64,000 bases of DNA from an uncultured Acidobacteriota bacterium (GCA_963701315.1 OY969603.1:2896394-2960393), one strand, 5' to 3'; shown: positions 5,369 to 55,781, counted from the first letter of the stretch. The notes: generated by a model not told the origin, from the letters alone. Program-made: numbers and translations.

Positions 5369-6060
5369 TCAGTGGGAGTCGGTGCCGGCCAGCGCTTTCG
5401 CGAACTCGGCCTGCTTCTGCCGGATCTCCTCGTCGTGGACGCCCGGCCGCACGTGATGAACCGACCGCAGGCCCGCCGCGAGGCCGCGCGCCTGGATCGA
5501 GTGATGGTCCTCGTTGTCCATGATCTCCCACTGCACCCGGGCGCTCCGCCAGTGGCGCAGCGCGAACTGCTCTCCGACCCAGGTGACGCCGCTGCCAAAC
5601 CTCAGGAGTGCCGTGAGGGGGTCTTGACCAATTTCCACACGCCCGCAGCAGATGAAGAGATCGGCTTCTCGGTCTTCCGCACCCTGCGTGCAAGGGTGCG
5701 GGGAGTGGGTCGTTCCGCTCCACATGCCGCGACGGTGGATCTTCCCTCGTGGACTCCGCGGGCCGGGCCCGTCGTCGGCGGGCCGGCTCTCTAGCCGTCC
5801 GGAGGAGGGCGGCGTGGCGGGTATCGTTGTGAGGGCAGGCGGGTGGCCCCCGAGTCGTCGTACCTGCGGCCACAGGGTGTGCCAGCGGCTGGGAACATGC
5901 CCGACAGGAGTGTCGGTCGTCGCCGCCACACGGTCGAGACCCTGGCGGTGTCGCGCGAAATGGGTCGACGCGATGTCGCTGGTGTCGAGACTGACGTACA
6001 AGATCGTTCCGGCCCCTTGGCGGCAGCCGGCGGAAAGGGCAGCGGACCACCCGCACCCCC
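5369..6060 (-). pseudogene. degraded or multiply frame-broken ORF, possibly class I glutamine amidotransferase-like
   Basis: The C-terminal part (…DLFICCGRVEIGQDPL…GVHDEEI…) reads well in one frame. Upstream coding signal appears to hop frames, for example at CAG-GTAC near 5860. No clean start codon. Family guess is weak. Confidence 0.25.
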
Positions 6061-6071
6061 GTGTCGCGGGG

Positions 6072-8492
6072 TCAGGTTCCCAGCAGCGACAGCGCGTTGG
6101 CGGTGGCCGCCCTCCGCGCCGGCAGCCACCCGCCGGCCACGAGCACGCCCGCCACGAGGGTACCGACCGCCACATAGACTATCGGATCCGAGGGATCGAC
6201 GTCGTCGAGCATCGCGGACAGGGCGGTGGCCATCGCGCGGGCCAGCATGAGCCCCACGAGGAGTGCGCAGGTGCCGGTGGTGAGCAGACGCGTCAGCGCG
6301 ACGCGCAGGAGCGAGCGGGGCGACGCACCGAGCGCGACGCGAATGCCGAACTCGCGGTAGCGCGTGCGGACCGAATACGCGGCGAACCCGTAGATGCCGA
6401 GGGCCGCGATCGCGAGCGCGAGCGCCGCGAAGGCGGAGAACCACTGTCCCCACAGCACGGGCAGCCACACGAGACGCTGGAGCACGGCCTCGAGCGTCAT
6501 CAGGTCGAAGATCGGCGCGTCGGGCACCTCGCGCTGAAGGGCGGTGCGCAGCGCCGCCGCCACCGCCTGGGGATCACCAGTCGTGCGAACGGCGAGGACC
6601 GGTGATTGCGAGGCGGCGGCGATTCGGGCCATCGGCACGTAGACCTGCGCGTCGGGCCACGCATCGATGCCTTTCAGCTGATAGGGGCGCGCCACGTCCG
6701 ACACGATGCCCGCCACCGTGAGCCAGTCGTCGGCTGACGTACTGCCGGCCGGCCGCATCCGGCGGCCGACAGCCTCCGCTCCCGGCCACAGGCGATGAGC
6801 CAGCGTGCGGCTCACGAGCGCCTGCGCGTCACCCCGTTCGATCTCCTCCTGCCGCAGCCAGCGGCCCGCGACCAACGATAGTCCCAGGACCGCTGGAAAG
6901 TCGCGTGTGCCCGCCATTCGGGACGCCAGCACGCCGGTCGAGCCCGTGCGAGGCTGCCCTTCGGCCTCGAGCAGCAGGGACGCGAACCCGACGCTGCTTG
7001 CCGGCAGCCGGTCGGCCGCGGCGGCTTGCTCGATGCCAGGGATGGACTGGCACCTGGCCAGCAAACGGTCGATGACGGCGAGCCGCTGCAGCACGTCAGG
7101 ATACCGCGCGGCTGGTAGTGAGAGGCGGAGCGTCAGGCAGTGAGCCGTGTCGAGACCGAGCGTGGCACCCCGCGACACGACCGCACTCCGGACGAGCAAC
7201 AGCGCGCCCACGAGCAGCACGATCGAGGCCGTCACCTGGAAACCGAGGAGGGCGTGCCTCAGCCAGGCGCCGCCCGAGCGCCTCTGGCTCTCGCTCTCGC
7301 CGCGTTGCACGGACACGGCATTCACCGTCGACCCGCGCAGCGCTGGCGCGAGGCCGAAAGCGAGGCCGGTGAGCAGGGCGGTGATGGCGATGGCCACGAC
7401 GCTCCGGACATCCATCGAGAGGTCGATCCACCGGGGGACCTGGAACGGCACGATGGCGACGATGGCATCGTCCAGCCACGCGGCCACCAGCAGCCCGAGG
7501 AGGCCGCCGAGCCCTGCCAAGGCCACGGTTTCGACGAGCGTTTCCCTGATCAGCAGTCCGCGCGACGCCCCGAGGGCCGCCCGGATCCCCATCTCCTGTC
7601 GGCGCCCGATGGCGTCGGCCAGGAGGAGGTTCGCGACGTTCGCGCAGACCAGGAGCAGCACCAACAGCACGCTCACCGCCAGGCCGACGAGCCCCGCGCG
7701 GGCCGCGGGCGGCAGCATCTCGTCCCGGAGCGGCCGGACGCACACGCTCCAGTCGCGGTTCGTCTGCGGATAGCGCCCGGCCAGCTGCGAGGCGACCGCC
7801 TGCAGGTCAGTCCGCGCATCGTCGAGCGACCAGCCGGGGCGGAGACGAGCCACGACGCCCAGCCACCGGGCATCGCGGGGCGTATGCCGCACGTCGAGCG
7901 CCAGCGGCGTCCAGATCTCGGTCCATTCCGGGAATTCATAGCGCCGCGGCATGACGCCGACGATGGTGTGCGGTGTGCCGTCGATCCGCAGGTGCCGGCC
8001 GACGATGTGCGGGTCCGCTTGGAAGCGACGCTGCCACAACACGTAGCTGATCACCGCGACGGGAGGCGCGCCGGCGATGTCCTCGCCCTCCTCGAACCCG
8101 CGGCCGAGCAGCGGCGCGCCGCCCAGGACGTGGATGAAGCCCGCCGTGACCCGGGCGCCGGGAACGTGCTCAGGGCGGTCGTCGCCGCCGATGCTGAAGG
8201 GCCGCGGTTCGTAGGCCGCCATCCCCGCCAGTCCCCGGTTGTTGCGCCGCCAGTCGTCGAAGTCGGGCGGCGACACCAGCGCCCAGGTCTTGCCGAGGCG
8301 GGGCTGGGACTCCCAGAGCGACACGATGCGGTTCGGGTCGCCAAACGGCAGCGGCCGCAGCACCATGGCGTCGAGGCTGCCGAACGTGTGGCCGACGACC
8401 CCGATGCCGAGTGCGAGAATGCCGACGATACTGGCCGTGAACAGGGGGTTGCGACGCCAGCGCCGGACGGCCGCGTGCAGGGTGAGAGACAT
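6072..8492 (-). CDS. ADOP-family duplicated FtsX/MacB-like ABC permease
   Basis: 807 aa from MSLTLHAAVRRWRRNPLFTASIVGILALGIG. Two FtsX-type 4-TM modules are separated by large periplasmic domains. The C-terminus ...GWLPARRAATANALSLLGT is typical of the Acidobacterial ADOP family. Confidence 0.85.
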   Translation of the reverse strand: MSLTLHAAVRRWRRNPLFTASIVGILALGIGVVGHTFGSLDAMVLRPLPFGDPNRIVSLWESQPRLGKTWALVSPPDFDDWRRNNRGLAGMAAYEPRPFSIGGDDRPEHVPGARVTAGFIHVLGGAPLLGRGFEEGEDIAGAPPVAVISYVLWQRRFQADPHIVGRHLRIDGTPHTIVGVMPRRYEFPEWTEIWTPLALDVRHTPRDARWLGVVARLRPGWSLDDARTDLQAVASQLAGRYPQTNRDWSVCVRPLRDEMLPPAARAGLVGLAVSVLLVLLLVCANVANLLLADAIGRRQEMGIRAALGASRGLLIRETLVETVALAGLGGLLGLLVAAWLDDAIVAIVPFQVPRWIDLSMDVRSVVAIAITALLTGLAFGLAPALRGSTVNAVSVQRGESESQRRSGGAWLRHALLGFQVTASIVLLVGALLLVRSAVVSRGATLGLDTAHCLTLRLSLPAARYPDVLQRLAVIDRLLARCQSIPGIEQAAAADRLPASSVGFASLLLEAEGQPRTGSTGVLASRMAGTRDFPAVLGLSLVAGRWLRQEEIERGDAQALVSRTLAHRLWPGAEAVGRRMRPAGSTSADDWLTVAGIVSDVARPYQLKGIDAWPDAQVYVPMARIAAASQSPVLAVRTTGDPQAVAAALRTALQREVPDAPIFDLMTLEAVLQRLVWLPVLWGQWFSAFAALALAIAALGIYGFAAYSVRTRYREFGIRVALGASPRSLLRVALTRLLTTGTCALLVGLMLARAMATALSAMLDDVDPSDPIVYVAVGTLVAGVLVAGGWLPARRAATANALSLLGT

Positions 8493-8981: not shown

Positions 8982-11085
8982 ATGCTGATCCCGTCGAGCA
9001 GCGGATTCCACGGGTGGCGCTGGCGTGCGGCCCTGGGGGCCGCCACGGCCATCGCGTGCACGTGTTTCGTCGTCGCCGGAACCGGTGCCCGGACACAGCT
9101 GCCGTCATTCGCGAGGGGAATCGACCTCGACGGCATGGACCGCGCGGTCCGGCCGGGGGACGACTTCTTTGCGTTCGCCAACGGGACCTGGGTCAAGAAG
9201 ACCCCGATTCCCGCCGACCGAAGCGGTTACGGCATCGACACGCAGGTCGAGGAGGTGACGGCGCAGCGCACGGCCGAGTTGATCACGGCGACGGCGGCCG
9301 GGCAGGCCGCCGCCGGGTCGGAGGCGCAGAAGATCGCCGACTACTACGCCTCCTTCCTGGACGTCGCGGCAATCGACGCCAAGGGCCTCGCGCCGCTCCA
9401 ACCGACGCTGGATCGCATCGCGGCCATCGCGAGCCGGCGTGATCTCGCGCGGTACATCGGCGGCCGCCTGCGGGCGGACGTCGACATCCTCAACGCAACG
9501 AACGTCTACACCGACAACCTGTTCGACCTGTGGATCGCCCAGGACCTCGACAACCCAGCGCGCTACGTGCCCTTCCTGGTCCAGGGCGGGCTCGGCATGC
9601 CCGACCGTGACTACTACCTCGATGCCTCGCCGCGCATGGCGGAGCTGCGCAGCAAGTACGTGACCCACATCGCCGCCGTCTTCGGCCTGGCCGGCATCGC
9701 GGACGCTGGCGCGAGGGCGGAGCGCGTCCTCGGCCTCGAACACCGGATGGCCGAGGTGCACTGGAGCCGCGAGGACACGAACGAGGTGACCAAGGGCAAC
9801 AACCACTGGTCCCGGGCCGATCTGGACGCGCGCGCTCCCGGTCTCGACTGGGCGGCCGCGCTCGAGGCGTGCGGGCTGGGCGGGCAGCAGGCCTTCGTCG
9901 TCTGGCAGCCCAGCGCGATCGTGGGCCTCTCGGCGCTGGCCTCGTCCGAGCCGCTCGAGACGTGGAAGGACTACCTCGTCTTCCACGCGATCGACCACGC
10001 GGCGGCCTACCTGCCCCGCGCGTTCGACAAGGAGGCATTCTCGTTCTACGGCACGGCCCTCTCGGGCGTGCCCGAGCAGCGGGAGCGGTGGAAGCTGGCC
10101 GTGGACGCCACGAGCGCGGCGCTCGGCGACGCGGTCGGGAGGCTGTACGTCGGCAAGTACTTCCCTCCCTCCGAGAAGGCCCGCGTCGAGGCGATGGTGC
10201 GCAACATCCTCGTGGCGTTCCGCGCGCGGATCGAGCGATTGTCCTGGATGGCGCCCGAGACCAAGGCCCGGGCGAAGGCCAAGCTCGACGCGCTGAAGGT
10301 CGGGGTCGGCTACCCGGACCGGTGGGTCGACGACTCGGGACTGCGGATCGTCAGGGGCGACGCGCTCGGGAACATCGAGCGCGTGGAGCGATTCGACCTC
10401 GAGCGGAACCTGCACAAGCTGGGGCAGCCGGTGGACCGGTCCGAGTGGGTGATGACGCCCCAAACGGTCAACGCCGTGAATCTGCCCGTGATGAACGCCC
10501 TCAATTTCCCCGCCGGGATCCTGCAGCCGCCCTACCTTGACCCCGGGCGGCCGGAGGCCATGGACTACGGCGCAACCGGGGCGACGATCGGCCACGAGAT
10601 CAGCCACAGCTTCGACGACCAGGGCGCGCTGTTCGACGCCGCAGGCCGGCTGAGCAACTGGTGGACCGAGGCCGACGGGACCCACTTCCAGGCGTCGGGC
10701 GCGGCGCTCGCGAAGCAGTACGACCTCTACCGCCCGTTCCCCGACGCTGCCGTCAACGGGAGGCAGACGCTCAGCGAGAACATCGCCGACGTGGCCGGGC
10801 TCGCCGCCGCCTACGACGCCTTCGTGGCGTCGCTCAAGGGCAAGCCCGCTCCCGTCGCGCAGGGGCTGAGCGGCGACCAGCAGTTCTTCCTCGCCTTCGC
10901 CCAGAGCTGGCGGTGGAAGGCGCGTGAGGCGGCGTTGCGGCGCCAGCTCATCACCGACGTCCACGCGCCCGAGCAGTACCCGGGCCGACGCCGTCCGGAA
11001 CATCGACGCCTGGTACGGCGCGTTCGACGTGAAGCCGGGCCAGGCCCTCTACCTGGCCCCCGGTGACCGCGTCCGGGTGTGGTGA
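8982..11085 (+). CDS. M13 family zinc metallopeptidase (PepO/neprilysin-like), secreted; apparent 1-nt indel near 10978-10983
   Basis: GGAGGA RBS and an N-terminal hydrophobic anchor. HEISH zinc motif and GENIAD-like SENIAD. After EQY the frame must shift by 1 nt to recover the canonical tail RADAVRNIDAWYGAFDVKPGQALYLAPGDRVRVW*. Confidence 0.85.
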
Positions 11086-11222
11086 GGGCGGCGGGCCGCG
11101 ACTCGCGGGCTCGCCTGGAAACGACCGGTCTCCGGTCCACACGCGCGCGTCCTTCTGGTCCCAGGTGTTTTCCGGGGCGAGGCTCTCGGGCCGCCGCGCT
11201 GACCGGCAGGACACGGTCCCGG

Positions 11223-11605
11223 TCACCGGGACGTTGTGCGCACGGTCATGGCGGACGGGAGCGGATCTCGCCGCTCGCGCGACATCGGGGAGGATGATCT
11301 GCCCTTCCCGTCGCGCGCTCTTGATGACCGCGCTCTTGTCGTCTTCCTCCGACCGGTGCTTGCCACAGCAATCGGTTCGATGCGACCATCGGTGTTGGCC
11401 GCGGCCCGCCAGCGCGCCTCGCCGTCCTGACGGGTGGTCTCCTCGTCGAAACGACCGGCCAGCACCATGATGTCGATGTCGCGCCACTCGTCGGCGCTGC
11501 CCCGACCGTACGAGCCGAACAGCCCGCCCGCGCGGCGAGTCCGAACTCGCTCTGGAGGGTTCGGAGGCACCGCTTGACCGAGGCGACTACTCGCTCATCA
11601 GCCAC
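11223..11605 (-). pseudogene. MNT-type nucleotidyltransferase (minimal NTase, TA-associated), frame-broken at least twice
   Basis: GTG start MADERVVASVKRCLRTLQSEFGLAA. The core LFGSYGRGSADEWRDIDIMVL is in a second frame and EDDKSAVIKSARREGQIIL in a third. Confidence 0.6.
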
Positions 11606-11705
11606 TGGAACACCTCGCTGGCGTTGGTGATCGGCCCGCGCGCCTGTTCCGCGGTCAGCGTCGGTCCCCGGGGTCTCGGGATACCGGCCGGCCTGGTAGA
11701 AGGCA

Positions 11706-11843
11706 ATCAGGCGGGAGAGGGAACGGTGGTGGCGCGGCCGTCGGGATGGCGGTGCTGGGAATCCCGCTGGCGGACCCCGGAGAAACCTACCCGCTCGAGC
11801 ATCGCAACAACTTCACGAGGCTTGAGAACAGGCGGTTTCGTCA
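11706..11843 (-). pseudogene. HicA-like mRNA interferase toxin, interrupted
   Basis: VTKPPVLKPREVVAMLERVGFSGVRQRDSQHRHPDGRATTVP matches the HicA core (…G.H..H.HPDGR..TVP). A premature stop follows, with plausible continuation in other frames. Confidence 0.45.
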
Positions 11844-11846
11844 CGG

Positions 11847-12053
11847 TCAGGCTACCCGGACCGCCTGAATGCCGACGAATTCCGCTTCGGGTACCTGGCC
11901 ATCTTCGAGCAGTATGGAGACAACGTCACGCAGGTTGGCGTTGAGCTCATCGAGGGTTTCAGCCTGGCTGTGGGCGCCAGGCATTCCAGGCACGTATCCG
12001 ACGTACAGGCCCGCGTTCAAGTCGCGCTCGACGACGGCGGTGAACTGCTTCAT
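11847..12053 (-). CDS. HicB-family antitoxin-like protein (short form)
   Basis: MKQFTAVVERDLNAGLYVGYVPGMPGAHSQAETLDELNANLRDVVSILLED is the typical HicB N-terminal domain. It lies directly upstream of the HicA-like ORF. Confidence 0.7.
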   Translation of the reverse strand: MKQFTAVVERDLNAGLYVGYVPGMPGAHSQAETLDELNANLRDVVSILLEDGQVPEAEFVGIQAVRVA

Positions 12054-12799
12054 GAGCGTAACTCCCGTCCCCGTAACATAGCAGGAAACGCGAAGCCGGC
12101 TCCATCAGGTGAACCGGAGCTGCGTCGTCTGCGCTGCGTTCTGAATCACCCGGCCGCGGTCTGGTTCCCGGGCGCAAGGTGGGCGTAGCGCTTGCAGGGT
12201 CGAGGCGAAGGGGCCGCCTACACTCTCGCGTTACAGGTTACGGACGTGAGGGCGCCATGACTGGGGACGCGTGCGTGGGACCGGGCGAACACGTCGTTGG
12301 TGAAGGCGCCGCCCGTGGCGCCCCGTGCGGCAGATGGCGACCGAGCCGTCCGCGAGAACCAGCGGTCCCCGATGCAGAGCGCCCCCCTGTTCAGCACTTT
12401 GAATCGCTCGTGCCGGGTCCCGGCCCGACACCCCCACGGGGTCGATCCTTTACCCGCCTCGTCTGAGCGGTCGTCAGCGTCATCCCGGACGGAGAACTCG
12501 TCGGCCACCTCGTGATCCTGCTTTGTCGACTGACTGGGTGATGGGCTTGTCGACCGGCTTGTCGTTCAACTTGCTGATCGACCGGCGGGGTCCGGGTGGC
12601 GGAGCGTCGGCGGTGGTCATTCGCTGCGCGGTCGCCCCCAGCATCCCGGCAGCGTTGAGGCAGTGCCGTTGGTGAACGATGCCGGCGCATTGGACGGCCG
12701 ACAACCCGTACCGTCGTGCGATCTGCGCGGAGTTCCCCGCGGAGTTCCCCGTTGCCCGGGCGTGCCCCGGGGGCCATAATCCTCAAACAGGGTGAGGAC

Positions 12800-13569
12800 A
12801 TGCATCTTCGCAGCATGAGCGTGTTTCTTCTGGCGGCTGCCGCGACGCTGGCGGCTGCCGACAATCCCTTTGTCGGCAAATGGAAAGAGAATCTCGCTCA
12901 GGACGACTACGTCGACGCCACCGTCAGCTACGAACAGACACCCCCCGGTGAGATGCAGGTGACCGCAGAGGGTCACTCCTACAAGTTCAGGATGGATGGA
13001 AAGGAATACCCCACCGGCTTCGGCTCCCTCGTCGCTTGGAAACAGGTTGATGAGAGCACATGGGAAACGGTCCGCAAGACCAACGGCATCCTGGACTGGG
13101 TAGCCACGACCAGACTCTCGCCCAATGGCAAGACCCTGATGGTGACTGAGAAGGGGAAGCGGTCGGACGGCGAACCCTTTGAGGACAACGAACCTACCAG
13201 CGCGTCGCCGGTGGGCCTGGGCTCGCCGGGAAGTGGAAGCTGACCCAGTGGAGATTCAGTTCCGCCTTTGTGATGGAGATTGCCCCCTACGAGGGTGAGG
13301 GCATCACCTGGAGACTTCCCGGGAACGCCACCGTGAACGCCAAGTTTGACGGCATAGATTACACCGTGACCGGCCCGAGCACGCCCGCCGGCTCCACGGT
13401 GGCGCTGAAAAGGACCGGCCCGCGATCCTTCGACGAGGTCCTGAAGATCAAGGGTAAGGTCGTGTACACGGGCACCGTCACGGCTTCTGCTGACGGCAAG
13501 ACTCTGACTGAGGTCGTGACACCTTCTGGCGCCAACGAGAAGACGAAGACCGTGTACGACCGCCAGTAA
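12800..13569 (+). CDS. secreted lipocalin-like domain protein, apparent 1-nt frame break near 13190-13195
   Basis: Signal peptide MHLRSMSVFLLAAAATLAAA, then NPFVGKWKEN. A second FVG/GKWK-type repeat (LAGKWKLTQ) and the C-terminal half are in the -1 frame (track ORF 13270..13569). Confidence 0.6.
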
Positions 13570-13639
13570 TCGACAGCCCAAGGCCGCTGCCGCCGCCCGC
13601 GCCCCGTGGTCCGGACGCGGACCACGGTCACGCCCACGT

Positions 13640-14035
13640 CGCTCAGCGAGCGCGTCATGCGGCGAGGCGAGAGGCGGGCGCCGAGGGCTAACCGCGCGAA
13701 GCTGACCAGCTCGTCCGCCAGGAAGAAGGCCACTGGTTTCGACCGCATCACGCGCCCCCGCTCGGCATGGAGCGTGAGCTGGCCGGGCGGGATCGCGTGT
13801 TTGGCGATCGTCTCGGCGATGAAGGTCTCCGCCAATTCAGCGCCTTCGCGATGCGCGATCATCCACCCCACGACGTACCGGCTGAAGACGTCCAGGATCA
13901 CGTAGAGATAGAAGTAGGTCCACTTGGCCGGGCCGAGCAGCTTGGTGATGTCCCAGGACCACAGCTGGTTCGGCGCGGTGGCCAGTAACTCGGGTTTCTG
14001 GTACGCCGGATGGACCAGTTGATCGCGCCGCTCGC
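13640..14035 (-). pseudogene. IS3/IS481-type transposase (rve integrase core) fragment
   Basis: Translates to ...PNQLWSWDITKLLGPAKWTYFYLYVILDVFSRYVVGWMIAHRE...LTLHAERG, the DDE/rve core start. Both ends of the gene are missing and no IRs are present. Confidence 0.7.
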
Positions 14036-14069
14036 TCGCTCATGAATACGGGCTATTCCCCCCGACCAT

Positions 14070-15284
14070 TCAAGCTTCCAGCAAGTCGTCAACGGGCCTG
14101 GCTAGGAACTCCTCCAGCGCGATGCCGTTTCCTCCGACGAGCAGCGTGCGCCGCGGCTTGAAAGCCTCCGCAAAGGCGCCTAGCCCGGGAAGCGCGACGG
14201 GCGCACGGCCGCTCTTCACTTCGATCGCGATGACGGTGCGGCCGACACGGACCACGAAGTCCACCTCGCGGTTGCCTTCGCGCCAGTAGAACAGTTCGCA
14301 TGCGCCGCCGGCCGCCGCATTGGCGAGGTGCGCGCCTACAGCGGACTCGACCAGTCGTCCGCGGAATTCTCTGTCGGCCCGTGCCTCGGCGGGCGAGAGG
14401 CCGGATTGCGCGGTCATGAGCGCCGTGTTCAGCACCTGCAGCTTGGGGCTCGACCCGCGCTGGTGCACGGCCTCACCGGCATACTTCTGAAGGCCGGTGA
14501 GCACCCCCGCGCCGCCGAGCAGATCGAGGTAGTGCGCGAGCGTCGTCGAGTTGCCAGCGTCCTGCAGTTGACCGAGCATCTTCGTGTACGAGAGCACCTG
14601 GCCCGAGTAACGGCACCCGAGTTCGAACAACCTCCGCAGGAGCGCGGGCTTGTCCACCCGCGTCATCAGGAGGACGTCGCGCGCGATCGTGGTCTCAATC
14701 AACGCATCGAGGAGGTAACGCCGCCAACGTCGCGGGTCGTGGACGAGCGGTGCAGCTCCGGGATACCCGCCGAAGTACAGATACTGCTCCAACGAGAACC
14801 CGAAGGCCGCACGCATTTCCGCGTACGACCAATGCGGCAGGTGCACCACTTCAAACCGGCCGGCCAGACTGTCTGTCAAGCCCCGCCGCATGAGCAGGGG
14901 CGCCGAGCCGAGCAGCACCACCTTCAGCGGACGGCGGGCCCGCGAGTCCTCGTCCCAGAGCCGCTTCACGGTCTCTGACCAGCCCGGGATCTTCTGCACT
15001 TCGTCGAGGGCCAGCACCGCGCCGGTCCTGCCGGCGTCTGCCGCCGCCATCCGTGCCCGCTCCCACTGGGCGGCGAGCCAGGCAGAGTCACCCAGGGTCG
15101 GCTCGTCGGCGGAGACGAAGACGCTGGCGGCACTCAGTCGGCCCAGCACCTGCTCGACGAGGGTGGTCTTTCCCACTTGGCGGGCGCCCGCCACGATCTG
15201 CAGGAAGCGGCGTGGCTCGCCCAACCTGGCCGCAAGGATGCCGGCTTGGCTGCGCTCGAACGGGGAGCTCGTAGGGGTACTCAT
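14070..15284 (-). CDS. AAA+ ATPase with DUF4143-type C-terminal domain
   Basis: Walker A GARQVGKTTL and Walker B VLALDEVQ. The C-terminal ...ELFYWREGNREVDFVV...AIEVKSG (restriction-endonuclease-like fold) is typical of the AAA_14/DUF4143 family. Confidence 0.85.
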   Translation of the reverse strand: MSTPTSSPFERSQAGILAARLGEPRRFLQIVAGARQVGKTTLVEQVLGRLSAASVFVSADEPTLGDSAWLAAQWERARMAAADAGRTGAVLALDEVQKIPGWSETVKRLWDEDSRARRPLKVVLLGSAPLLMRRGLTDSLAGRFEVVHLPHWSYAEMRAAFGFSLEQYLYFGGYPGAAPLVHDPRRWRRYLLDALIETTIARDVLLMTRVDKPALLRRLFELGCRYSGQVLSYTKMLGQLQDAGNSTTLAHYLDLLGGAGVLTGLQKYAGEAVHQRGSSPKLQVLNTALMTAQSGLSPAEARADREFRGRLVESAVGAHLANAAAGGACELFYWREGNREVDFVVRVGRTVIAIEVKSGRAPVALPGLGAFAEAFKPRRTLLVGGNGIALEEFLARPVDDLLEA

Positions 15285-15695
15285 TGTCGTGAGTAAGTGT
15301 GCTCAACGCTCTGAGTAAAGTCAAGCCGCCGGCACCAGTTCCTGTCATTCGGTGATGACACCCATCAAGAAGGGCTCGAGCGCGAGGCCCGCGGCTCGCC
15401 GGAGGGCGTCGATGATCGGTCGGATGGGGCTGTCAAGCACGCGGGGGAGGCGCATTGGGCCGGCGGCAAGGGCACGACGGCGGGCCGGTCATCTCCCATA
15501 TTCTGACCGCCGGCGCCGAATCTCAAACCTAATATTGCGGAGCTTTCTGCTATGCTTCGGGCTCGCTGCATGGAGTCCTCACCGGGCCAGCGTGGCCACC
15601 GCCGCCGCCTTGTGTTCGGCAGCTGTTCGCGAGCGTCTGAAAGCGCGTGATTTTGGACGGCTGTCGACGGCGGCGTGAGATGGGGGCGGCCACCC

Positions 15696-15845
15696 TTACT
15701 TGGGTGGCCGTTGCTGTCTCTGGTGCGCCTGGGCGTCGCGGCGGCGGTAGCTCTCGCCGTCGATCGCGACGATCTCCGCGTGGTGCGTGAGCCGATCGAT
15801 GAGCGCGACGGCACAGCCGGCGTTGGGAAAGACGCTGTCCCAGTT
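15696..15845 (-). pseudogene. IS21-family IstB helper ATPase, C-terminal fragment only
   Basis: ...[33 protein letters not shown] matches the IstB C-terminus (AxLDRLxHHxxxxxxxGxSYR). Everything upstream is replaced by the antisense of the next gene. Confidence 0.6.
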
Positions 15846-28291: not shown

Positions 28292-29888
28292 GTGTCACGC
28301 AACGTCGTAGTGGTCATGCTCGACACGCTACAGTTCAACTACCTCGGTTGCTACGGCAACGCGTGGATCCACACGCCTCATATCGATCGGTTTTCCAAGC
28401 AGGGCGTGCTCTTCGAGAACGCGTACACCGAGGGACTTCCTACCATCCCGTGCCGGCGCGCCATGTTCACCGGTCGCTACACGCTGCCCGTGAAAGGTTG
28501 GTCGCAGCTCGACATCGACGACACGACCATTGCCGACCTGTGCTGGGGCCACCCTATCGACACCGCGCTGGTGGGCGACGCCGGACCCCTTCGCCTTCCG
28601 AAGTTCGGCTACTCACGCGGCTTCGATAAGGTCCATTTTATCCACGGTCACGAAACCGACCACCAGGTACCTACGCCCAGGACGAGCTTGCCGGCCTCCG
28701 GGCGGAAGACTACTTCGAGGACCACGTCATGGAGAGCGCGGACACGATCCTCGGCGAGACGGTCGTCCGTCCGCTCATGAACCAGGTGGAATGCCACCTG
28801 AAGGAGCGCCAGGTACCTGGAAGTCGGACGACGACCAGCACGCCGCGCAGGTGATGAAGGCCGCTTCGCGCTACCTGGAGAGCGCCGACCGCAACAAGTC
28901 GTTCTTCCTGTGGGTGGACTGCTTCGATCCCCACGAGCCCTGGGACCCGCCCTCGGTCTACGACCGAACCCTGCGATGTCCGTACGACCCGGACTACCAG
29001 GGCAAGGACATGTTCCTGCCGATCCAGGGGCACGTGCGGGGCCTTTACACGGAGCCAGAGCTGCACCACATCCGGATGCTCTATGCCGAAAAGGTCACGA
29101 TGGTTGACAAGTGGTTCGGCTGGTTGATGGACAGGATCCGGGCGCTCGGCCTGGAAGAGAACACGCTGGTGCTACTCGTGTCGGATCATGGCTGCCCCAT
29201 GGGCAACGGTGAGCACGGCCACGGGATCATGCGCAAATGCCGTCCGTGGCCGTACGAGGAACTCGCGCACATTCCGATGATTGTTCGCGGTCCCGGCCTG
29301 CCGCACGACGCGCGCGTGTCTGGTTTCGTGCAGTCCTGCGACGTCGCGCCGACCGTCGTCGACTGGCTCGGGATCGGCGTTCATCCCTCGATGCAGGGCA
29401 AGAGCCTGCTGCCTCTCGCGAAGGGCGAGGTCGAACGGCTGAGGGACTTCGCCCTCGCGGGGTACTTCCGCTACTCCTGGTCGCTCATCACGCCGGACTG
29501 GTCCTTCATCCACTGGCTCAAGGACGAGGAGAAGACCGTCGCCGATTCGCGGTTCGGCATGTACGGCCGCGAACTAGCGCAATCCACGGCGCACCTGCTC
29601 CAAACGAGGAGGCTGAATGCGGTGGAGGATCGAGACACGGCCTTCTACACGAGAGCGTACGAGGAATACAAGAAAGCCGCAACCCTCGATGGCGAGGACC
29701 AGTGGACGTGCACGGCGGCCAGTTCCGGAGAGGTGCCGGCACGCGACGAGTTGTACCACCGGGTAGCGGATCCGTTCCAGCTGAGGAACGTCGCAGCGGA
29801 GAAGTCGGACGTCGCCCGTGACCTGTTCGAGCGGCTTCGCCTCTTCATGGCTGAGCTGCGGGCGTCGGACAGCGGTGCTCTGTTGTGA
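28292..29888 (+). CDS. cytoplasmic sulfatase-family (alkaline-phosphatase superfamily) enzyme with Thr at the FGly position; two apparent -1 frame breaks
   Basis: No signal peptide. Motifs VVVMLDTLQ..., LPTIPCRRAMFTGRY (T-x-P-x-R-x4-TG), FFLWVDCFDPHEPW and LLVSDHG. Coding signal moves frame 2 to 1 at 28666 and frame 1 to 0 at 28812. Confidence 0.8.
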
Positions 29889-43364: not shown

Positions 43365-43943
43365 TCAGCAGGCCTGCAGGAGTCCGTGGATCTTGAGCAC
43401 GGTGTGACCGAGGCACACAAGCGCCCATTCTCGCTGGACCTTCTCGAGTCCGCGCAAGACGAATTGGCGGAAACCGCGTCCATGCTTCGTCTGACCGAAG
43501 ACCGGTTCCACGATCGCCTTGCGCCACCGATAGACGTCATGGCCGCGCTTCGTCTGCAGCTTCCGCCTCATGCGATCGGTCAGCGTCGCCGCCTTCGGCA
43601 AGGGCCCGCGGGGGCATCGCACCGGCTGCTGATCGTGGGGCTGCCGACCGGTGGCCACGTAGCCGTCGATCCCCGCACTGGCCAGGTACGCCAAGTTCGC
43701 GTCGGAGCAGTAGCCGCTGTCCGCCAAGACCTCGGCCGGCCGCTCGCCAAATTGCGTCTCGATCACCTCGACCATCGGCTGCAGTTGTTGCTTGTCGTTC
43801 GGCTCCTGCGTCACCGCCTGCCCGACGATCAGTTGGCTGACGGGCTCCACGGCGATTTGCGCGTTGTACGCGTGCACAAACCCGTCGGGCCCCGTCATGA
43901 TGCGCGACTCGGGGTCGGTGAAGTTGTACTGCGCCTTCGGATT
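43365..43943 (-). pseudogene. IS1182-family transposase, C-terminal part (DDE domain)
   Basis: …PKAQYNFTDPESRIMTGPDGFVHAYNAQIAVE…ADSGYCS…KAIVEPVFGQTKHGRGFRQFVLRGLEKVQREWALVC… is the typical IS1182/IS5-like C-terminus. Confidence 0.85.
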
Positions 43944-44121
43944 ATGGAGAGCTCTCCATAACGAAGATTATGGTGAGTGCCGCGTTATGCTGCGCGCGGG
44001 CGATGCTCGACGGAATCACGGCCATGTTAGAGGCCGTCGTCCGTTGATCTTCTTTCCATAATCCGGTCTCGGGTGCATTGTCGTTCCTCCACCAGCAGAA
44101 AGGAGGAGCGATGTTTTCGAC

Positions 44122-45360
44122 GTGGTATCCGGCGACGCGCGCGGCCGCTATCGACGCTCCCCACACAAAGCCAGGATCGATCGGATCGGCAGCAGGCTTC
44201 GCCAGCAGCAGTATCTCGATGACGCGATCCGGCATCATCTCCACGAGTGGCTGCGATTCACTCAGTACCTGGATCAACGCGGCGTGACTCGCCCGACGAG
44301 TATCGCTGATGAGTGCGTGCGCCGGTACGTGGCGCGGCGCACGCGAGGTACGAGCGGGAGCCACGGCCGGTTTGTCCGCGCATCCGTCCGTCTCTTCATT
44401 GAGGCGGACGATGACGGTCACTGCCGGCGCCGCGTCGGGACCGCCTCATGGGTGGCGCCGGGCTGGTTTGGCGAGATCCTGACCCGCTACCTCGACTTCG
44501 TTCAGCGACATCGCGGCCTTGCCCGTCGCACGGTGAGTCAGTATGCGCGCAAGCTATCGGTGTTTGCCCAGTACCTGGAGCAGGCGAAGTGCACGCGGCT
44601 CGAGGCGATCGCGCCCCGGCACGTGCGTGCATTCTACGAAAACGCCGACGGCGACCGGCCACGTCGCTCCTACAGCTCGAGCCTCCGTGCGTTCTTCCGG
44701 TGGGCGGCGACACAAGACTTGGTCTCCGCGGTGCTGAGTGATGCGGTTCCCCGTCCGCGACACTATCGGTTAGCGACGCTCCCGGACGTGCTCACCGACG
44801 AGGACGTCGAGCGCATTGTCGCGACCGTGGACCGATCCACGCCGGTGGGGCGACGCGATTGTGCGGTCTTGCTCCTGGCCGCACGGTACGGGCTGCGGCC
44901 GTGCGATATTCGTCAGCTGACGCTTGATCACCTCGATTGGCGCCAGGCATGTATTGAGATCCGGCAGGCCAAAACGGGCCGGCCGCTGGTATTGCCGCTG
45001 CTTCCGGATGTCGCCGATGCCCTCAGTACGTACATCCGGGACGGCCGTCCGCCCTCTCTCAGTCGTGCCATCTTCATCAGGCATCGAGCGCCCTTTGAGC
45101 CGTTTGTCGCTGAAAACAATCTCTCGACCATCATGCGCGCGGCGCTGCACCGAGCGGGTCTGGCTGATCGACCTGGGCGCCGCGGCCTCTACCTGTTCCG
45201 GCACACTCTCGCCACGCGTCTGCTGGCCGCCGGCCATCCGATAAAGACGATCGCCGACGTCCTGGGGCACGCCTCCACTGACACGACGTACGGCTACGCG
45301 CGGATCGAGCTCTCAAATCTCCGCACGGTCGCCATCGCGGAAGCGGAGGTGGATGCATGA
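44122..45360 (+). CDS. ritA: tyrosine recombinase, first of trio (RitA-like)
   Basis: SAM-like N-domain plus catalytic domain: ...LLAARYGLRPCDIRQLTLDHLDW...IRQAKTGRPLVLPL...FRHTLATRLLAAGHPIKTIADVLGHASTDTTYGYARI (R..H-x-x-R..Y). The start is uncertain. Confidence 0.8.
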   Translation: MVSGDARGRYRRSPHKARIDRIGSRLRQQQYLDDAIRHHLHEWLRFTQYLDQRGVTRPTSIADECVRRYVARRTRGTSGSHGRFVRASVRLFIEADDDGHCRRRVGTASWVAPGWFGEILTRYLDFVQRHRGLARRTVSQYARKLSVFAQYLEQAKCTRLEAIAPRHVRAFYENADGDRPRRSYSSSLRAFFRWAATQDLVSAVLSDAVPRPRHYRLATLPDVLTDEDVERIVATVDRSTPVGRRDCAVLLLAARYGLRPCDIRQLTLDHLDWRQACIEIRQAKTGRPLVLPLLPDVADALSTYIRDGRPPSLSRAIFIRHRAPFEPFVAENNLSTIMRAALHRAGLADRPGRRGLYLFRHTLATRLLAAGHPIKTIADVLGHASTDTTYGYARIELSNLRTVAIAEAEVDA

Positions 45361-46358
45361 CGGCTTCCGCCTACGCCACGACGTTCGGTTCGCCGCTCGC
45401 GTCGCAGCTCGAGCGATTCCTGGCGCTCAAGCGCGCGATGGGCTATCGCTACCGCGATGAATCGCGGTTGCTCCGTGAGTTGGATCATTTCCTCACGGCA
45501 CGCCTGGCGTCGATGTCTGATCCGGTTCTCACACTGGCGGTCGCGCGCGACTATGTCGCCCGTCGCGGGAAGGAATCCGATGCGACCCGCGCCCATCGTC
45601 TCACGATCATCAGAGAAGTCAGCCGATTCCTGCGGCTGGAAGACCCGCGCACGGAGGTTCCAGGGCCGAGATTCCTCGCGATTGCACGGCACACGTTTGT
45701 GCCGCGGGTGCTCAGTCGCGAGGAGGGCCGCCGGTTCCTTCAGGCCTGCGACCACCTATCCCAAGACCCCCGATCGCCGATCCGGCACGTGGTGCTGGGC
45801 ACGGCCCTGCGGCTGTTGTATCTCACCGGGCTGCGCCGCGGCGAGGTCCTCCGGCTCACGCTGGCCGACGTCGATCCGAATGCCGGCGTCTTGCAGATTC
45901 ACCACACCAAGTTTGGCAAGTCGCGCCTGGTTCCGGTCGCTCCAGATCTCGCCCGACGCCTTACAGAATGTCGACGCGTCGTCCAAGCGCGCCTCGGACC
46001 CCGTGATCCGGAGACGCCGTTCTTTCCGCGGTCCACCGGTCGTCGGTACGGACCCTCCGCACTTCGCCGGGCATTTCATCAGACTCTGGATCTCGCAGGA
46101 ATTCCTCGTGTGCGCGGTGGCCGCCGTCTCCGCCTCCACGACCTTCGGCATTCCTGGGCAGTGCTGCGCCTCACGTTGTGGTGTGAGCAGAATGTCGACC
46201 TTGGGGCGAAGCTGCCACTCCTCGCGACGTACCTCGGTCATGTCGACTTGACCAGCTCCCAGCGGTATCTGCAGCTGACGCAAGACCTCGTCGCCGAGGT
46301 GACCCGTCGCCATCAAGCGCGCTTCGGCCATCTCATTTGCGAAGGGAGGGCCTCGTGA
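45357..46358 (+). CDS. ritB: tyrosine recombinase, second of trio (RitB-like)
   Basis: ATGA overlap with ritA. ...LLYLTGLRRGEVLRLTLADVD...HHTKFGKSRLVPV...LHDLRHSWAV...YLGHVDLTSSQRYL. Confidence 0.8.
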   Translation: MTASAYATTFGSPLASQLERFLALKRAMGYRYRDESRLLRELDHFLTARLASMSDPVLTLAVARDYVARRGKESDATRAHRLTIIREVSRFLRLEDPRTEVPGPRFLAIARHTFVPRVLSREEGRRFLQACDHLSQDPRSPIRHVVLGTALRLLYLTGLRRGEVLRLTLADVDPNAGVLQIHHTKFGKSRLVPVAPDLARRLTECRRVVQARLGPRDPETPFFPRSTGRRYGPSALRRAFHQTLDLAGIPRVRGGRRLRLHDLRHSWAVLRLTLWCEQNVDLGAKLPLLATYLGHVDLTSSQRYLQLTQDLVAEVTRRHQARFGHLICEGRAS

Positions 46359-47359
46359 GGCTGCCGATGCTCTCCGCCTTGATCACCGACTTCTTTGTTC
46401 GCCATCTGGCGTCCGAGCGAAATGTCAGCGCTCACACGACGATCGCCTATCGCGATGCCGTGAAACTCTTCCTTCGCTTCGCCTCGATGCGCTGCCACCG
46501 GGAGATCGACGAGCTCACGATCAGCGACCTCAGCGCCGATGCCGTGCTGGAGTTCCTCGCCGACCTTGAGACGCATCGCGGCAATGCCGTGCGGACCCGC
46601 AACGCTCGCCTGGCAGCCCTGCAGACCTTCTTTCGGTACGTCGCGACACGCGAGCCGGTGCTGGCCAGCCACTGCCATCCGATTTTCGCGATTCCAACCA
46701 AGAAGACGAGCCGCCCCGTCCTCGGCTACCTGAGCGAACAGGAGCTGGCGCATCTCCTCGCACAAGTCGACCGCTCCGGTGTCAATGGCGAACGCGACTA
46801 CGTGCTGCTCGCCGTGCTGTACGACACCGGCGCTCGCATTCAAGAGGTCCTCGACCTCGTCCCTCAGGACTTTCACTTCGACGCTCCGGCCTATGTGCGC
46901 GTCCGCGGGAAGGGACGTCGCGAACGACTCTGCCCGCTCCTTCCGCAGACCGCCCGTCTCATCCGACGATTTCTGACCGCGCAGCGGCGGACTCCCGGAG
47001 ACGCACGCCCGTTGCTGCAAAATCGGCGAGGCGCCCGATTGACCCGACACGGTGCGCGGTACTTGCTGCTGAAGCACCTCCATCGCGCCGCCGCTTCGAT
47101 GCCGAGTCTCGCTCGGCCCAAGATCAGCCCGCATACGCTTCGCCACACCAAAGCGATGCACCTGCTACAGTCAGGCGTCCCGCTCATCACCGTCAAAGAC
47201 TTCCTCGGTCACGTCGACCTGACGTCGACCGAGGTGTACGTCCAAGCCGACCTGGAGATGAAACGACAGGCGCTCGCAGGCGCAGGCGGGCCCCATGCGG
47301 TCCCCGGTCGACGCCTGCGCTTGCCGTCAGGCCTCATCGCCTGGCTCGAGTCGCTATAG
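46355..47359 (+). CDS. ritC: tyrosine recombinase, third of trio (RitC-like)
   Basis: GTGA overlap with ritB (an in-frame ATG at 46337 is also possible). ...VLYDTGARIQEVLDL...VRGKGRRERLCPL...PHTLRHTKAMHLLQSGVPLITVKDFLGHVDLTSTEVYV. Confidence 0.8.
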   Translation: MRLPMLSALITDFFVRHLASERNVSAHTTIAYRDAVKLFLRFASMRCHREIDELTISDLSADAVLEFLADLETHRGNAVRTRNARLAALQTFFRYVATREPVLASHCHPIFAIPTKKTSRPVLGYLSEQELAHLLAQVDRSGVNGERDYVLLAVLYDTGARIQEVLDLVPQDFHFDAPAYVRVRGKGRRERLCPLLPQTARLIRRFLTAQRRTPGDARPLLQNRRGARLTRHGARYLLLKHLHRAAASMPSLARPKISPHTLRHTKAMHLLQSGVPLITVKDFLGHVDLTSTEVYVQADLEMKRQALAGAGGPHAVPGRRLRLPSGLIAWLESL

Positions 47360-47457
47360 TCCGATATGGGAAGCCGGCGATCGCCCCTGCCAGCAGATCG
47401 TTCCGGAAGATCACGATCTCCGCCGCAGCTTCCCATAACGCGGCACTCACCATAATT

Positions 47458-48177
47458 CGGATCGGGAACCGCGTCCGATTGCTCGGCCGGGGCGGCCTCG
47501 GCTTTCGCGCGCGCCTCCAAGACCCGCTTCGCTTCGCGGATCCGCGCCAGTCGAGTCTCTCGGCGCTGCAGCTCCGGGGGCAGCTCGTCCCCGCGACGAT
47601 CGCGCCCGTGCGTCGCGTCCTCTTGCGCGTCGGTCGCCTCCGCCTGGGTCAGCAGATGATGGACCTCGGTGGCCAACGTCGCTTCGCGTTCCTGCATCCG
47701 CCCGTAACTCATCGCCTGGTGTTTCGAGGCGTTCGCCTTCACCTTACTGCCGTCGATCGCGACGCGCCCGACGCTGACGGCGCCCGCTTCCCGCGCCATC
47801 TGCAAGACCTGAACGAACAGGCCTTCCAACGCGGCCAGATGGATCTTCCGAAAGTCCGCGATCGTGCGAAAGTCAGGCGTGTTGCCGGCGGCCAACACGC
47901 GAAACGCCACATCGTCCACCAAGCGGCGCGCGATCCTGCGCGACGAGAAGACCCCGGTGCAATAGCCGTACACCAGCACCTTCGTCATCATCGCCGGGTG
48001 ATAGGGCGGCTGGCCCCGATCGTCACGCTCGTAGACCGACGTGATCGCCGACAAATCCAAGACGTCCACCAGGTCGCTCACGAAGAACGCAAGATGATCG
48101 TCGGGCAGCCACTCGCGCAGGCTCGGCGGCAACAACAAGCTCTGTTCGGGCAGATACGTCTTGTACGACTTCGCCAT
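47458..48177 (-). pseudogene. IS1182-family transposase, N-terminal part
   Basis: MAKSYKTYLPEQSLLLPPSLREWLPDDHLAFFVSDLVDVLDLS...GQPPYHPAMMTKVLVYGYCTGVFSSRRIA... is the typical IS1182 N-terminus. The track ORF reads on into the RIT terminal repeat. Confidence 0.85.
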
Positions 48178-48242
48178 CTCTCTAATCCAAGATCCGATCG
48201 ATCGCTGTCAAGGCTGAGATGGCGGAATTCTCGGACACGCTC

Positions 48243-50291: not shown

Positions 50292-51194
50292 TCAGCCTAG
50301 CGGACCGTCGGTACCGGGACAGGTCGCGCCCCGCGCCACCTGCTGCGTCGTCGACCCGAAGAGCGCCAGTGCTGCACCGCCGCGGCCCTGGGCACCCATG
50401 ACGATCAGATCGGCGCCTTCCTCCGCCGCGATGTGGAGAATACCGTGATACGCGCGGCCGACCACGACCACGGTTCTGACGCCTCGGTTGAGTCGGGGTT
50501 CCCCTGAGACGAGGCTCTCGAGCCGCTGCCGAGCGTCCTTGAGCAGGTACGTTCGAAACTCCGGGACGTTGAAATGCGCGTACTCAAGTGGTTCTTCTTC
50601 TGCCAGGAATTCGATCGCGTGAACCAGGACGACAGACGCGTCGAAGCGGCGCGCGAGATCGAGGGCGAACCCGAATGCCTCCAACGCGGCGGACGAGAAG
50701 TCAATCGGACAGAGGATGGTTCGGAGCGTGATTTCGGACGGCGGGGTGGCGGGCGCGTGCGGCGGCACGGTCAATACCGGACACGGCGCTTTCCGCAGCA
50801 CCTTCTCGGTCACAGCCCCGAGAAAGAACCGGTCGAACCCGCTGCGGCCGTGCGTTCCCATCACCAGGAGGTCAGCACGCATCGCAAGAGCCTGGTCCAC
50901 AATTGTGGCCGCTGGTTCGCCGGCTTCGGCCATCAAGGCGACAGGGCTCGCGCCCAGGCCCGCGGCGGCCACCGTCTGCCGCAGCGCTTCGAGCACCTGG
51001 TCCCTTAGGACGGGATACACCATGCTGACAGGCTCGACGCCAGTCCGGACGTCCATCGGCGTGAACGAAGGCACCACGTGCAAGGTGGTTAGGTGGGCCT
51101 CGTACCACTTCGCGATTGCGCCGGCATAGGCGAGGGTCCGGACCGATAGTTCGCTCAAATCAACCGGACAGAGGATGCGTTTGAATTCGACCAC
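50292..51194 (-). CDS. tandem-domain universal stress protein (UspA family)
   Basis: Two USP domains: FKRILCPVDLSELS...GTHGRSG...CPVLTV and ILCPIDFSSA...GAQGRGG...ATCP. The final residues look frame-shifted at GGTACC (50310-50315). The alternative frame gives the canonical ...CPVPTVR* ending at 50297. Confidence 0.85.
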   Translation of the reverse strand: MVEFKRILCPVDLSELSVRTLAYAGAIAKWYEAHLTTLHVVPSFTPMDVRTGVEPVSMVYPVLRDQVLEALRQTVAAAGLGASPVALMAEAGEPAATIVDQALAMRADLLVMGTHGRSGFDRFFLGAVTEKVLRKAPCPVLTVPPHAPATPPSEITLRTILCPIDFSSAALEAFGFALDLARRFDASVVLVHAIEFLAEEEPLEYAHFNVPEFRTYLLKDARQRLESLVSGEPRLNRGVRTVVVVGRAYHGILHIAAEEGADLIVMGAQGRGGAALALFGSTTQQVARGATCPGTDGPLG

Positions 51195-54211: not shown

Positions 54212-55181
54212 TCAGGGAACCGGCCTGACGCTGTGGTCGGGGGCCCCGCCGGGTCGTTGGCCCGGACGTTTCGTCAAGTCGCCGCTCACGCGCAGGTACT
54301 GCTTCTTCGTGGCGTCCCACCGGTAGACTTCTTGGTAGCGCTCACGACGCTCCTTGGGGGCCACGCCATCGCAGTCGCGTGTGTACTCCTTCGGCGCCCT
54401 CACGACGTCGACGACGGCGACGAGATCCGGCAGCTCGCGGTCCTTCGCAGGAACCGTCTTCCACGACAGCTTCTCGGTGGCAGCCCCGTTGCACCCGTCG
54501 CCCACCGTGCTGTAGGTGAAGATCTGGGCGATCCGGCGGAGCCGACCGTCGCGGAGGTGGAAGATCGAGGTGATCGCGTACTCCTCGCCGGCGTTCAGAT
54601 GCGTGTTGAGGACGGTGAAGCTGTCGTCCGGGCCCAGCTGCGGAGTCCCCTCCGTACCGAGGTAGGTTTCTCGGTCGAGCCTGACCTCGGCGACGTCGGT
54701 CGGCTCGGCGCTCCCCTCGGGGAATACGGCCAGCACCGAGATCTCTTCACCGAATCCGCCGTCCTCCGACGGTTCCGGGCGCATGCCACCCCACATCAGG
54801 AGCGTGAAGCGGCGACCCTCGGCGCGAACGGCGCCAACCGACGGCGCATGCAGATGCGTGCCTACCGGAAGCTCGGCCCGCTCCTTGCTCGTGCCGGGCA
54901 TCCGCAACTGCTTATCGACAGCGAGCACGTACCTCGTCACCGGCGAGCTGGCCGCCCGGGAAGATGCGTTTCGCGCCGTCCACAGCGGTGTAGCCCGGCG
55001 CCAGTCGGGTCGCCCAGCCTGACGAATCGGCGGCGCCACCTGGCACGGGACACACGACCACGGCAAGCAGACTGGCGATCAGCAGGCGTCGTCGCTGGTG
55101 TCCTCGCGGCTCGGAGGAGGCGTGGCGGAACCCTCCGGGGGGTGATTTACTGAGGCCGACGGCGTTCACGGGTCCTCCCAT
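54212..55181 (-). CDS. secreted hypothetical protein, apparent 1-nt frame break at about 54930
   Basis: The N-terminal frame (RRRLLIASLLAVVVCPVPGGAAD…FPGGQLAGDE) carries a signal or lipoprotein-like segment. The body (YVLAVDKQLRMPGTS…) continues in another frame. No family was recognised. Confidence 0.5.
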
Positions 55182-55361
55182 CGACAGTGATTTCGCGCCG
55201 GGCCGCGCACGCGAAAGACGGGCGTCGACGCGTCACACGATGACGGGCGCCCGCTGGCTGATGACACTGCCACCCGCGACTCCGCCCGCCTGCCAGACGT
55301 TTGGCGACGTCCGTTCGAGAGAATAGCAGGTTCCGGCGCAGTTGTTGAGTCGCTGCGGCCG

Positions 55362-55781
55362 TTGACGCCTGACCGTCGGGCCCTCCGAGAGACGGGACCC
55401 CGCACGGGCCGGCGCGCCCGGCATTCACGATCGCGCGGTGCGTCCACCCATGGCTGGCGCTCACGGTGGGATGCGGACGTGGTCCTCGACCCATCCCGCC
55501 TTCACGACACTCCGGACCTCGTCGCCGCGTTGACCTCCGCCGGCTTCGCGAGAGGCCGTCGGGTGGGTGCGTGGACTGTCGAAAGGGACGTTGACGGGGC
55601 CCAGGTGACCATCGACATCGACCTGATGGTGCCGGAAGCGGTAGGTGGGGCTGGCCGTCGCGCTGCTCCCCTCCGTGATCATTGGGACAGACGGCCAGGA
55701 AAGCGCGTGCGTACCCGGCTTCCGCACTCTGCGGATGGACGTGGAAACGATGGCCTCCGCCCCCGCCGCGGCTCGACGCTG
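55362..55781 (+). pseudogene. nucleotidyltransferase-like fragment (AbiEii-like?), frame-broken and truncated
   Basis: …WDADVVLDPSRLHDTPDLVAALTSAGF…VTIDIDLMVPEAVGGAGRRAAPL resembles NTase-fold toxin cores. The frame changes at GTACCCGG (55711-55718), with an early stop before the converging gene. Confidence 0.4.

Follow-up and report, generated by a model that had tools for sequence, protein, structure and literature searches.

Do genes that change reading frame beside the tetranucleotide GTAC record real mutations, or do they record errors made in sequencing and assembly? The question is raised by a 64-kb stretch (65.6% G+C) from an uncultured Acidobacteriota bacterium (GCA_963701315.1, OY969603.1:2896394-2960393), the whole of which is here called the window. 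An initial annotation listed seven frame breaks on G or C runs abutting GTAC (5860, 10975, 28665, 28811, 50310, 54929 and 55711) and suggested that they were single-run indels, possibly left by GTAC methylation in long-read data. Four of them stand by comparison with relatives: one in an M13 metallopeptidase gene (10975), two in a sulfatase gene (28665 and 28811) and one in a tandem universal stress protein (USP) gene (50310). A fifth (54929) is indicated by coding potential, and 5860 and 55711 were not borne out. The best explanation, to which we give a probability of about 0.82, is that the breaks are nanopore consensus errors (of the R10.4.1, Flye and Medaka type) at a GTAC motif that is modified in this lineage.

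Lesions at GTAC in conserved genes

The sulfatase gene carries two lesions. A codon-usage hidden Markov model, trained on long Pfam-supported open reading frames (ORFs), places its frame switches exactly at 28666/7 and 28812/3. At both junctions a representative protein (P0209; 80% identity where aligned) shows one Tyr, against the five nucleotides GTACC that the window has between the Gln codon and the next conserved codon. A metagenome scan with the sulfatase returned 80 loci, and 11 short-read relatives (81-93% amino acid identity) were read as DNA. At the first junction all 11 have one Tyr or Phe codon (CAG/CAA-TAC/TAT/TTC-TAC/TAT), where the window reads CAG-G-TAC-C-TAC; three of them (L005, L008 and L014) read CAG-TAC-TAC/TAT, coding H-Q-Y-Y-A. 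At the second junction, 11 of 11 (L005-L014 and L080) read CAG/CAA-TAC-TGG, coding R-Q-Y-W-K, and the window reads CAG-G-TAC-C-TGG. Because one codon in the relatives corresponds to five nucleotides in the window, each sulfatase break is a +2 event and not the single-run indel first proposed. Removal of both added bases gives a codon-model gain of 12.6 at 28665-28672 and of 12.6 at 28811-28818, and the repaired protein (530 amino acids) aligns end to end with its relatives, the best being L005 (93% protein identity). Over 9 kb aligned to the short-read contig L005 (28280-37357), the only uncompensated indels of a length not divisible by three are the four bases that flank GTAC.

The break in the M13 metallopeptidase gene is simpler. 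Pfam matches both Peptidase_M13_N and Peptidase_M13 in this gene, and the latter match ends at position 173 of 205 in the sequence as assembled. In a genome scan, 80 of 80 relatives match through residue 700, the last of the repaired protein. All 11 translated relatives end in HAP.EYR[AT][DE]...VW and a stop codon, or in a close variant; the window DNA reads CAGTACCCGGGCC. Relative L092 has GAGTACCGGGCCGAC and the window CAGTACCCGGGCCGAC, a difference of one added C directly after GTAC. Removing one C restores the RVW end followed by the stop, as the initial annotation had claimed, and the deletion brings a codon-model gain of 10.1. The error-free sequence would be CAGTACCGGG. The true sequence here is AGTACC, with one genuine C already 3' of GTAC.

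As assembled, the USP gene has its last seven codons out of frame, and the ORF extends to 50292. More than 30 relatives (77-92% identity) have 298 amino acids, and the one-base removal proposed earlier also gives a protein of 298 amino acids; the C-terminus expected with it, CPVPTVR, differs from the CPVLTVR found in 10 of 10 relatives retrieved. In a DNA alignment with L002, L003 and L004, the relatives read CCC-GTAC-TGAC or CCC-GTCC-TGAC and the window reads CCCG-GTAC-CGAC (gene sense). The lesion consists of one added base, which is the sole indel in the coding sequence, and a T>C change (gene sense). This substitution, at 50310, replaces Leu by Pro, which is absent from the 10 relatives retrieved; the two closest relative contigs, L002 and L003, have A there on the + strand. 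The flank change suggests that frame-neutral substitutions beside GTAC may occur elsewhere too.

All confirmed lesions are insertions that touch GTAC and leave its core intact. According to the initial annotation, the effect appears only where GTAC touches a homopolymer. Three of the confirmed sites, namely the USP site and the two in the sulfatase gene, contradict this (the M13 site being the fourth): there the G and C runs are the inserted bases themselves. The true sequences are AGTACT and AGTACT in the sulfatase gene and AGTACG in the USP gene, so the GG and CC runs were made by the insertion and are not its precondition.

At 54929, the coding-potential frame changes at about 54925-54940, and a scan of all positions flags 54925-54960. 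When the C after GTAC is deleted, the protein body and an N-terminus resembling a signal peptide (RRRLLIASLLAVVVC) fall into one ORF of 322 amino acids, with a gain of 9.4, similar to that of the confirmed sites. No homologue or family was found for the repaired gene, for which no proper single-protein homologue search was made. The two remaining sites gave no comparable signal. At 5860, coding signal is weak or absent over 5650-5900, repair brings no gain, and the repaired ORF matches no family (again with no proper homologue search). At 55711, the repair gain is 0.0, the closest signal of the scan is 60-130 nt downstream, and neither Pfam nor NCBIfam gave a match, likewise with no proper homologue search. 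The sites and the genes that contain them are listed in Table 1.

Table 1. Genes with frame breaks next to GTAC, and the sites examined (window coordinates).
Feature	Position	Strand	Remarks
Cited GTACC site	5860..5864	+	No frame break substantiated
M13 metallopeptidase gene	8982..11085	+	From MLIPSSS start to true RVW stop; two frames in assembly
GTACCC, GTAC plus one spurious C	10976..10981	+	+1 nt; relatives' E-Y-R-[A/T]-[D/E]
Sulfatase gene	28292..29888	+	Three frames in assembly; Pfam Sulfatase split 1-121 / 142-301 over two ORFs
AGGTACCT for AGTACT of close relatives	28665..28672	+	Spurious G 5' and C 3' of GTAC; +2 nt
AGGTACCT for AGTACT or AATACT of close relatives	28811..28818	+	Spurious G 5' and C 3' of GTAC; +2 nt
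Tandem USP gene	50297..51194	-	Pfam Usp twice; true stop 50297-50299
GGTACC for AGTAC- (+ strand) of closest relatives	50310..50315	+	Spurious C at 50315; A>G at 50310
Hypothetical secreted or lipoprotein-like gene	54212..55181	-	Two frames in assembly; no homologue found, coding potential only
GTACC, probable spurious C after GTAC	54929..54933	+	+1 nt; coding potential only
Cited GTACCC site in degenerate nucleotidyltransferase-like ORF	55711..55716	+	No frame break substantiated

Linkage to GTAC and to one lineage

A GTAC-flank scan scored, by codon-model gain, all 117 possible deletions in the window that take out the C after a GTAC, the G before it, or both. The four highest gains are at 28813, 28667, 10976 and 54929, in that order. 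The USP lesion does not register, its out-of-frame tail being too short. The scan of all positions found the other intragenic breaks of the window to be -1 events, at 11336-11419, 11508-11543, 11716-11752 and 13181-13242. The first two are both in a gene for an MNT-type nucleotidyltransferase, the upstream one (~11520) within a G-run.

GTAC occurs 187 times in the window (1 per 342 nt), against 198 expected from trinucleotides, and is therefore not depleted. Bases within 5 nt of some GTAC make up 4.0% of the window, and inter-base positions touching GTAC make up 0.58%. At least 4 of about 12 window breaks are directly adjacent to GTAC (chance p ~6e-7), and co-localisation is far above chance, with the four relative-confirmed lesions and the one coding-potential lesion all touching the motif. 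That random long-read homopolymer errors or pseudogene lesions fell beside a frequent 4-mer by accident is hardly credible. GTAC is common, and at the level of stop-bounded intervals (~50 nt) its presence in 4 of about 12 is unremarkable (estimated p ~0.07); at base resolution, however, 4 of 4 confirmed lesions touch it, and the pattern recurs in three related long-read contigs (L004, L165 and L166). The breaks away from GTAC are also of another type: they are -1 changes, and the one examined closely (MNT, ~11520) lies in a G-run.

Contigs L165 and L166 allow a direct comparison of assemblies. Both exceed 1 Mb, come from two different ENA assemblies and samples, and represent one sister species; over 20 kb their identity is 99.3-99.6%. 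When divergent or repeated stretches are set aside, just two single-base indels separate them, AA-GTACC / AAG-GTACC and GAGTACCA / GAGTA-CG. Both flank GTAC (p ~2e-5), and the second splits a 379-amino-acid gene in one of the two assemblies only. In L004, a frameshift lies a few nucleotides from GTAC in a hydrogenase maturation protease gene, and TIGR00072 spans the junction once it is repaired. L004, L165 and L166 have Flye-style contig_N names in ENA assemblies. MFD long-read MAGs (metagenome-assembled genomes) were made from native DNA with R10.4.1, Guppy SUP, Flye and one round of Medaka, with no short reads (PMC12313526); relatives with bin names beginning in MFD and contig_N names were assigned to that nanopore-only project (PMC12313526).

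L165 and L166 also differ in ways unrelated to GTAC: the copies of an 18-nt tandem unit (GGGATCGGGGGCTGCGCAGA-like) at L165 5276 differ in number by one, and there is a 4-nt indel at 3553. Their truncated USP gene was considered as a further GTAC frameshift and proved instead to be a genuine 5' replacement common to both assemblies.

The same GTAC-flank scan was applied to three sets of loci: the window with L004, L165 and L166 (263 sites), 14 MFD-named nanopore MAG loci of other lineages (665 sites), and 19 short-read loci (765 sites). Raw hits numbered 7/263, 1/665 and 2/765, respectively (Fisher p = 1.6e-4). Gene-boundary effects explain two of the three background hits (L151:11935, inside an intact M13 match, and L005:734, intergenic); the third, L104:12691, was uninspected. 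Among the same-lineage hits, L165/L166:7696 and L166:2181 also look like boundary effects, although at L166:2181 the assemblies do truly disagree. Curation leaves the same-lineage loci with five scan-detected frameshifts, to which two lesions found by other routes (USP and L165:8614) are added. Excess of GTACC/GGTAC in long-read versus short-read loci, and substitutions flanking GTAC relative to L005, gave no clear signal (small numbers).

The 665 GTAC sites in the 14 other-lineage nanopore loci, six of which have 66-72% GC, include zero genuine GTAC-linked frameshifts. Among nanopore MAG loci, the GTAC effect is confined to this lineage, which argues for DNA modification over a general k-mer bias. 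A generic base-caller or polisher bias at GTAC k-mers, independent of modification, would fit the stereotyped lesions (+C 3' of GTAC), the small share of sites affected, as in a borderline consensus decision, and the lack of a methyltransferase among the genes found in the window. Such a bias is unlikely, because the other-lineage nanopore loci are free of these frameshifts whereas the window and its three relatives have several.

Short-read relatives (L002, L003 and L005-L014, which are relatives and not the same sample) have unbroken sequence at every confirmed site, and about 60 kb of same-lineage short-read contigs, with 207 GTAC sites, contain no genuine GTAC frameshift, their single scan hit being the intergenic one in L005. 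These data bear on whether the indels are real mutations, arising by pseudogenisation or by phase-variation-like switching (for example, through a GTAC-specific nuclease or nickase and error-prone repair). The window does contain genuine decayed genes and mobile-element remnants, and the differences beside GTAC between L165 and L166, from different samples, could in principle be population polymorphism. We nevertheless consider real mutation very improbable. The genes affected encode conserved, housekeeping-type enzymes; their downstream frames are open and undecayed, with 90-93% protein identity to intact relatives and no stop codons, and the sole indels in them adjoin GTAC, the core of which is always kept. 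No simple mutational mechanism accounts for a pair of symmetric, non-contiguous single-base insertions (AGTACT to AGGTACCT) that one gene carries twice.

Programmed frameshift and phase-variable loci likewise have a gene in two frames around a short sequence. The GTAC sites differ from them in having no slippery heptamer or long repeat tract (the GG and CC runs are only 2-3 bases), every relative examined is single-frame, and the sulfatase needs two +2 events. A more far-reaching version would make the insertions real and recurrent in this acidobacterial-type lineage, with a GTAC-directed nickase, restriction or modification enzyme and error-prone repair producing switchable frameshifts in many genes, and with L165 and L166 showing population polymorphism; this is more improbable still.

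Origin of the insertions

The breaks behave like long-read consensus artefacts, as the initial annotation supposed: the insertions are symmetric, the downstream frames are conserved, the short-read relatives lack them, and L165 and L166 are discordant. It is well supported that the frame breaks are such an artefact, with no new biological mechanism, and methylation is the probable cause. The artefact belongs to a known general kind and is a matter of data quality. From this evidence we infer the platform of the window record, strand-specific read errors and the modification of GTAC. Directly 3' of GTAC, the base caller would tend to add a C or to call the following base as C by mistake. Because GTAC is palindromic, reads of the opposite strand with the same error would carry an extra G immediately 5' of it. 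The strand error that survives polishing would decide the outcome: +C in the M13 gene and at 54929, +C with a substitution on the opposite side in the USP gene, and both +G and +C in the two sulfatase lesions (AGTACT to AGGTACCT). Each event would throw an otherwise intact gene out of frame. The symmetric AGTACT to AGGTACCT lesions match reads of either strand carrying GTAC as GTACC, with polishing accepting one or both errors.

The trigger would be a modified base in GTAC, specific to the lineage, through which the pore signal is distorted: either N4-methylcytosine (m4C), as made by M.RsaI, or N6-methyladenine (m6A), as made by M.HpyAXII or M.PabI. Since the effect is confined to one lineage, a lineage-specific modification is the most likely trigger. 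Known GTAC methyltransferases include the m6A enzymes HpyAXII, PabI and CviQI and the m4C enzymes RsaI and MjaV (PMC2588503). The restriction-modification systems to which such enzymes belong (PMC2588503) share with the present case the same 4-bp palindrome, in which both strands would be modified; they differ in that the window showed no gene of this kind and is not depleted in GTAC.

Modification-induced, strand-specific errors have been described in R10.4.1 reads of bacteria (PMC11610603), and errors from modification persist in polished assemblies, with methylation-induced errors affecting outbreak tracing (PMC11610573). These errors (Dam/Dcm-type; PMC11610603, PMC11610573) resemble the GTAC lesions in several respects. 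They are tied to a short, organism-specific motif, survive Medaka-type polishing, differ between assemblies and are absent from short reads, and the symmetric lesion of the palindrome is the product expected of strand-specific read errors. The homopolymer indels of long-read-only assemblies also offer a parallel, in that they are single-base errors in the length of G or C runs that cause apparent frameshifts in intact genes; the MNT G-run at ~11520 and the break at 13190 are ordinary examples within the window. The GTAC events differ from these in being insertions that make a two-base run from a single base beside a fixed motif, whereas the ordinary events of the window are -1.

Several observations weigh against a consensus error at modified GTAC. 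Published modification errors in R10.4.1 data are mainly substitutions within the motif, whereas here C or G is inserted just outside GTAC, with an occasional flank substitution, and frameshifts result; the literature searched contained no +C/+G insertion signature at GTAC. No DNA methyltransferase was seen among the ORFs of these 64 kb that were scanned with Pfam, which include only a small-molecule Methyltransf_23-type protein (38189-38815). Two of the seven cited sites (5860 and 55711) are without support. Lastly, many GTAC sites are intact, as the initial annotation had noted (about 180 of 187), and these include AGTACT and CAGTAC in closely similar contexts, for example at 40243 and 52949. 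Because such look-alike sites are intact, the error must be stochastic or depend on something not captured here. A probabilistic error is what a near-threshold consensus call at moderate coverage would give.

Extended motifs (CAGTAC, CCAGTACT and AGTACT) were tried as separators of affected from intact sites, and each has intact counter-examples. CCWGG (Dcm-like), considered as an alternative motif, matches the sulfatase sites only.

The rate in the window is about one false frameshift per 13 kb. If this holds genome-wide, it would amount to hundreds per MAG of this lineage, and the errors would be annotated as pseudogenes or split genes, distorting estimates of metabolic potential and pseudogene load. 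A repair rule that needs no reads is to try deleting a C that follows GTAC or a G that precedes it, and to look for AGGTACCT replacing AGTACT. The case also suggests that assembly errors can sometimes reveal a methylation motif.

Gene content, other breaks and mobile elements

The window encodes a TonB-dependent receptor with CarboxypepD_reg, MacB/FtsX permeases, sulfatases, an M13 peptidase, a tandem USP, toxin-antitoxin pairs and insertion sequence (IS) remnants. This gene set points to a soil Acidobacteriota-like organism, and MAGs labelled Acidobacteriota or Thermoanaerobaculia were the nearest relatives recovered. The stretch 13928-15673 has a 100% identical match in a 1.7-kb Logan contig (run ERR11594402), and one protein has an exact counterpart on a contig of more than 1 Mb; exact look-ups with the TonB receptor, an isomerase-like protein, the USP and an ABC ATPase gave no match.

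A cluster of -1-type breaks unlinked to GTAC lies at 11200-13570. The MNT-type nucleotidyltransferase gene has two (~11520, in the G-run, and ~11370), a HicA-like gene has a possible one (11716-11752), and a two-domain lipocalin-like protein has one (~13190-13220). Either ordinary deletions in homopolymers or true decay, in a region of toxin-antitoxin genes and mobile elements, could account for them. The IS3-family element at 18481-19600 (- strand) has two ORFs joined at GAAGAAAAAAC (~19325, an A-run), which is the usual programmed -1 ribosomal frameshift and not an error. The initial annotation had assigned the breaks away from GTAC to plain homopolymers. A G-run is present at the MNT site examined closely and an A-run in the IS3 element, where the frameshift is programmed.

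Other remnants in the window, at 13362-14039 and 15699-16872, comprise an IS3-type integrase fragment, an IstB-like fragment (- strand) and a sigma-54 activator that lacks its N-terminal part. Unlike the GTAC cases, these appear to be genuine pseudogenes. Between 42900 and 43370 (~470 nt), no convincing reading frame was seen on either strand; site 43099 in this interval carries CAGTACCCGGG, an 11-mer that it shares with the M13 error site.

A match to the Rfam group II intron model lies at 37433-37584 on the - strand (44.3 bits; gathering threshold 40) and is possibly a fragment. No intron-encoded reverse transcriptase ORF was noticed near it. A tRNA gene (Rfam, 50.9 bits) at 3579-3662 lies in a 600-nt gap between a DUF6370 gene and an amidohydrolase gene.

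An IS1182/IS5-like transposase gene is split in two, with its C-terminal part at 43365-43967 (DDE_Tnp_1) and its N-terminal part at 47209-48207 (DUF772). The halves are separated by three tyrosine recombinase genes in tandem (44122-45360, 45357-46358 and 46337-47359), and the whole (43365-48207) resembles an IS into which a "recombinase in trio" element has been inserted.

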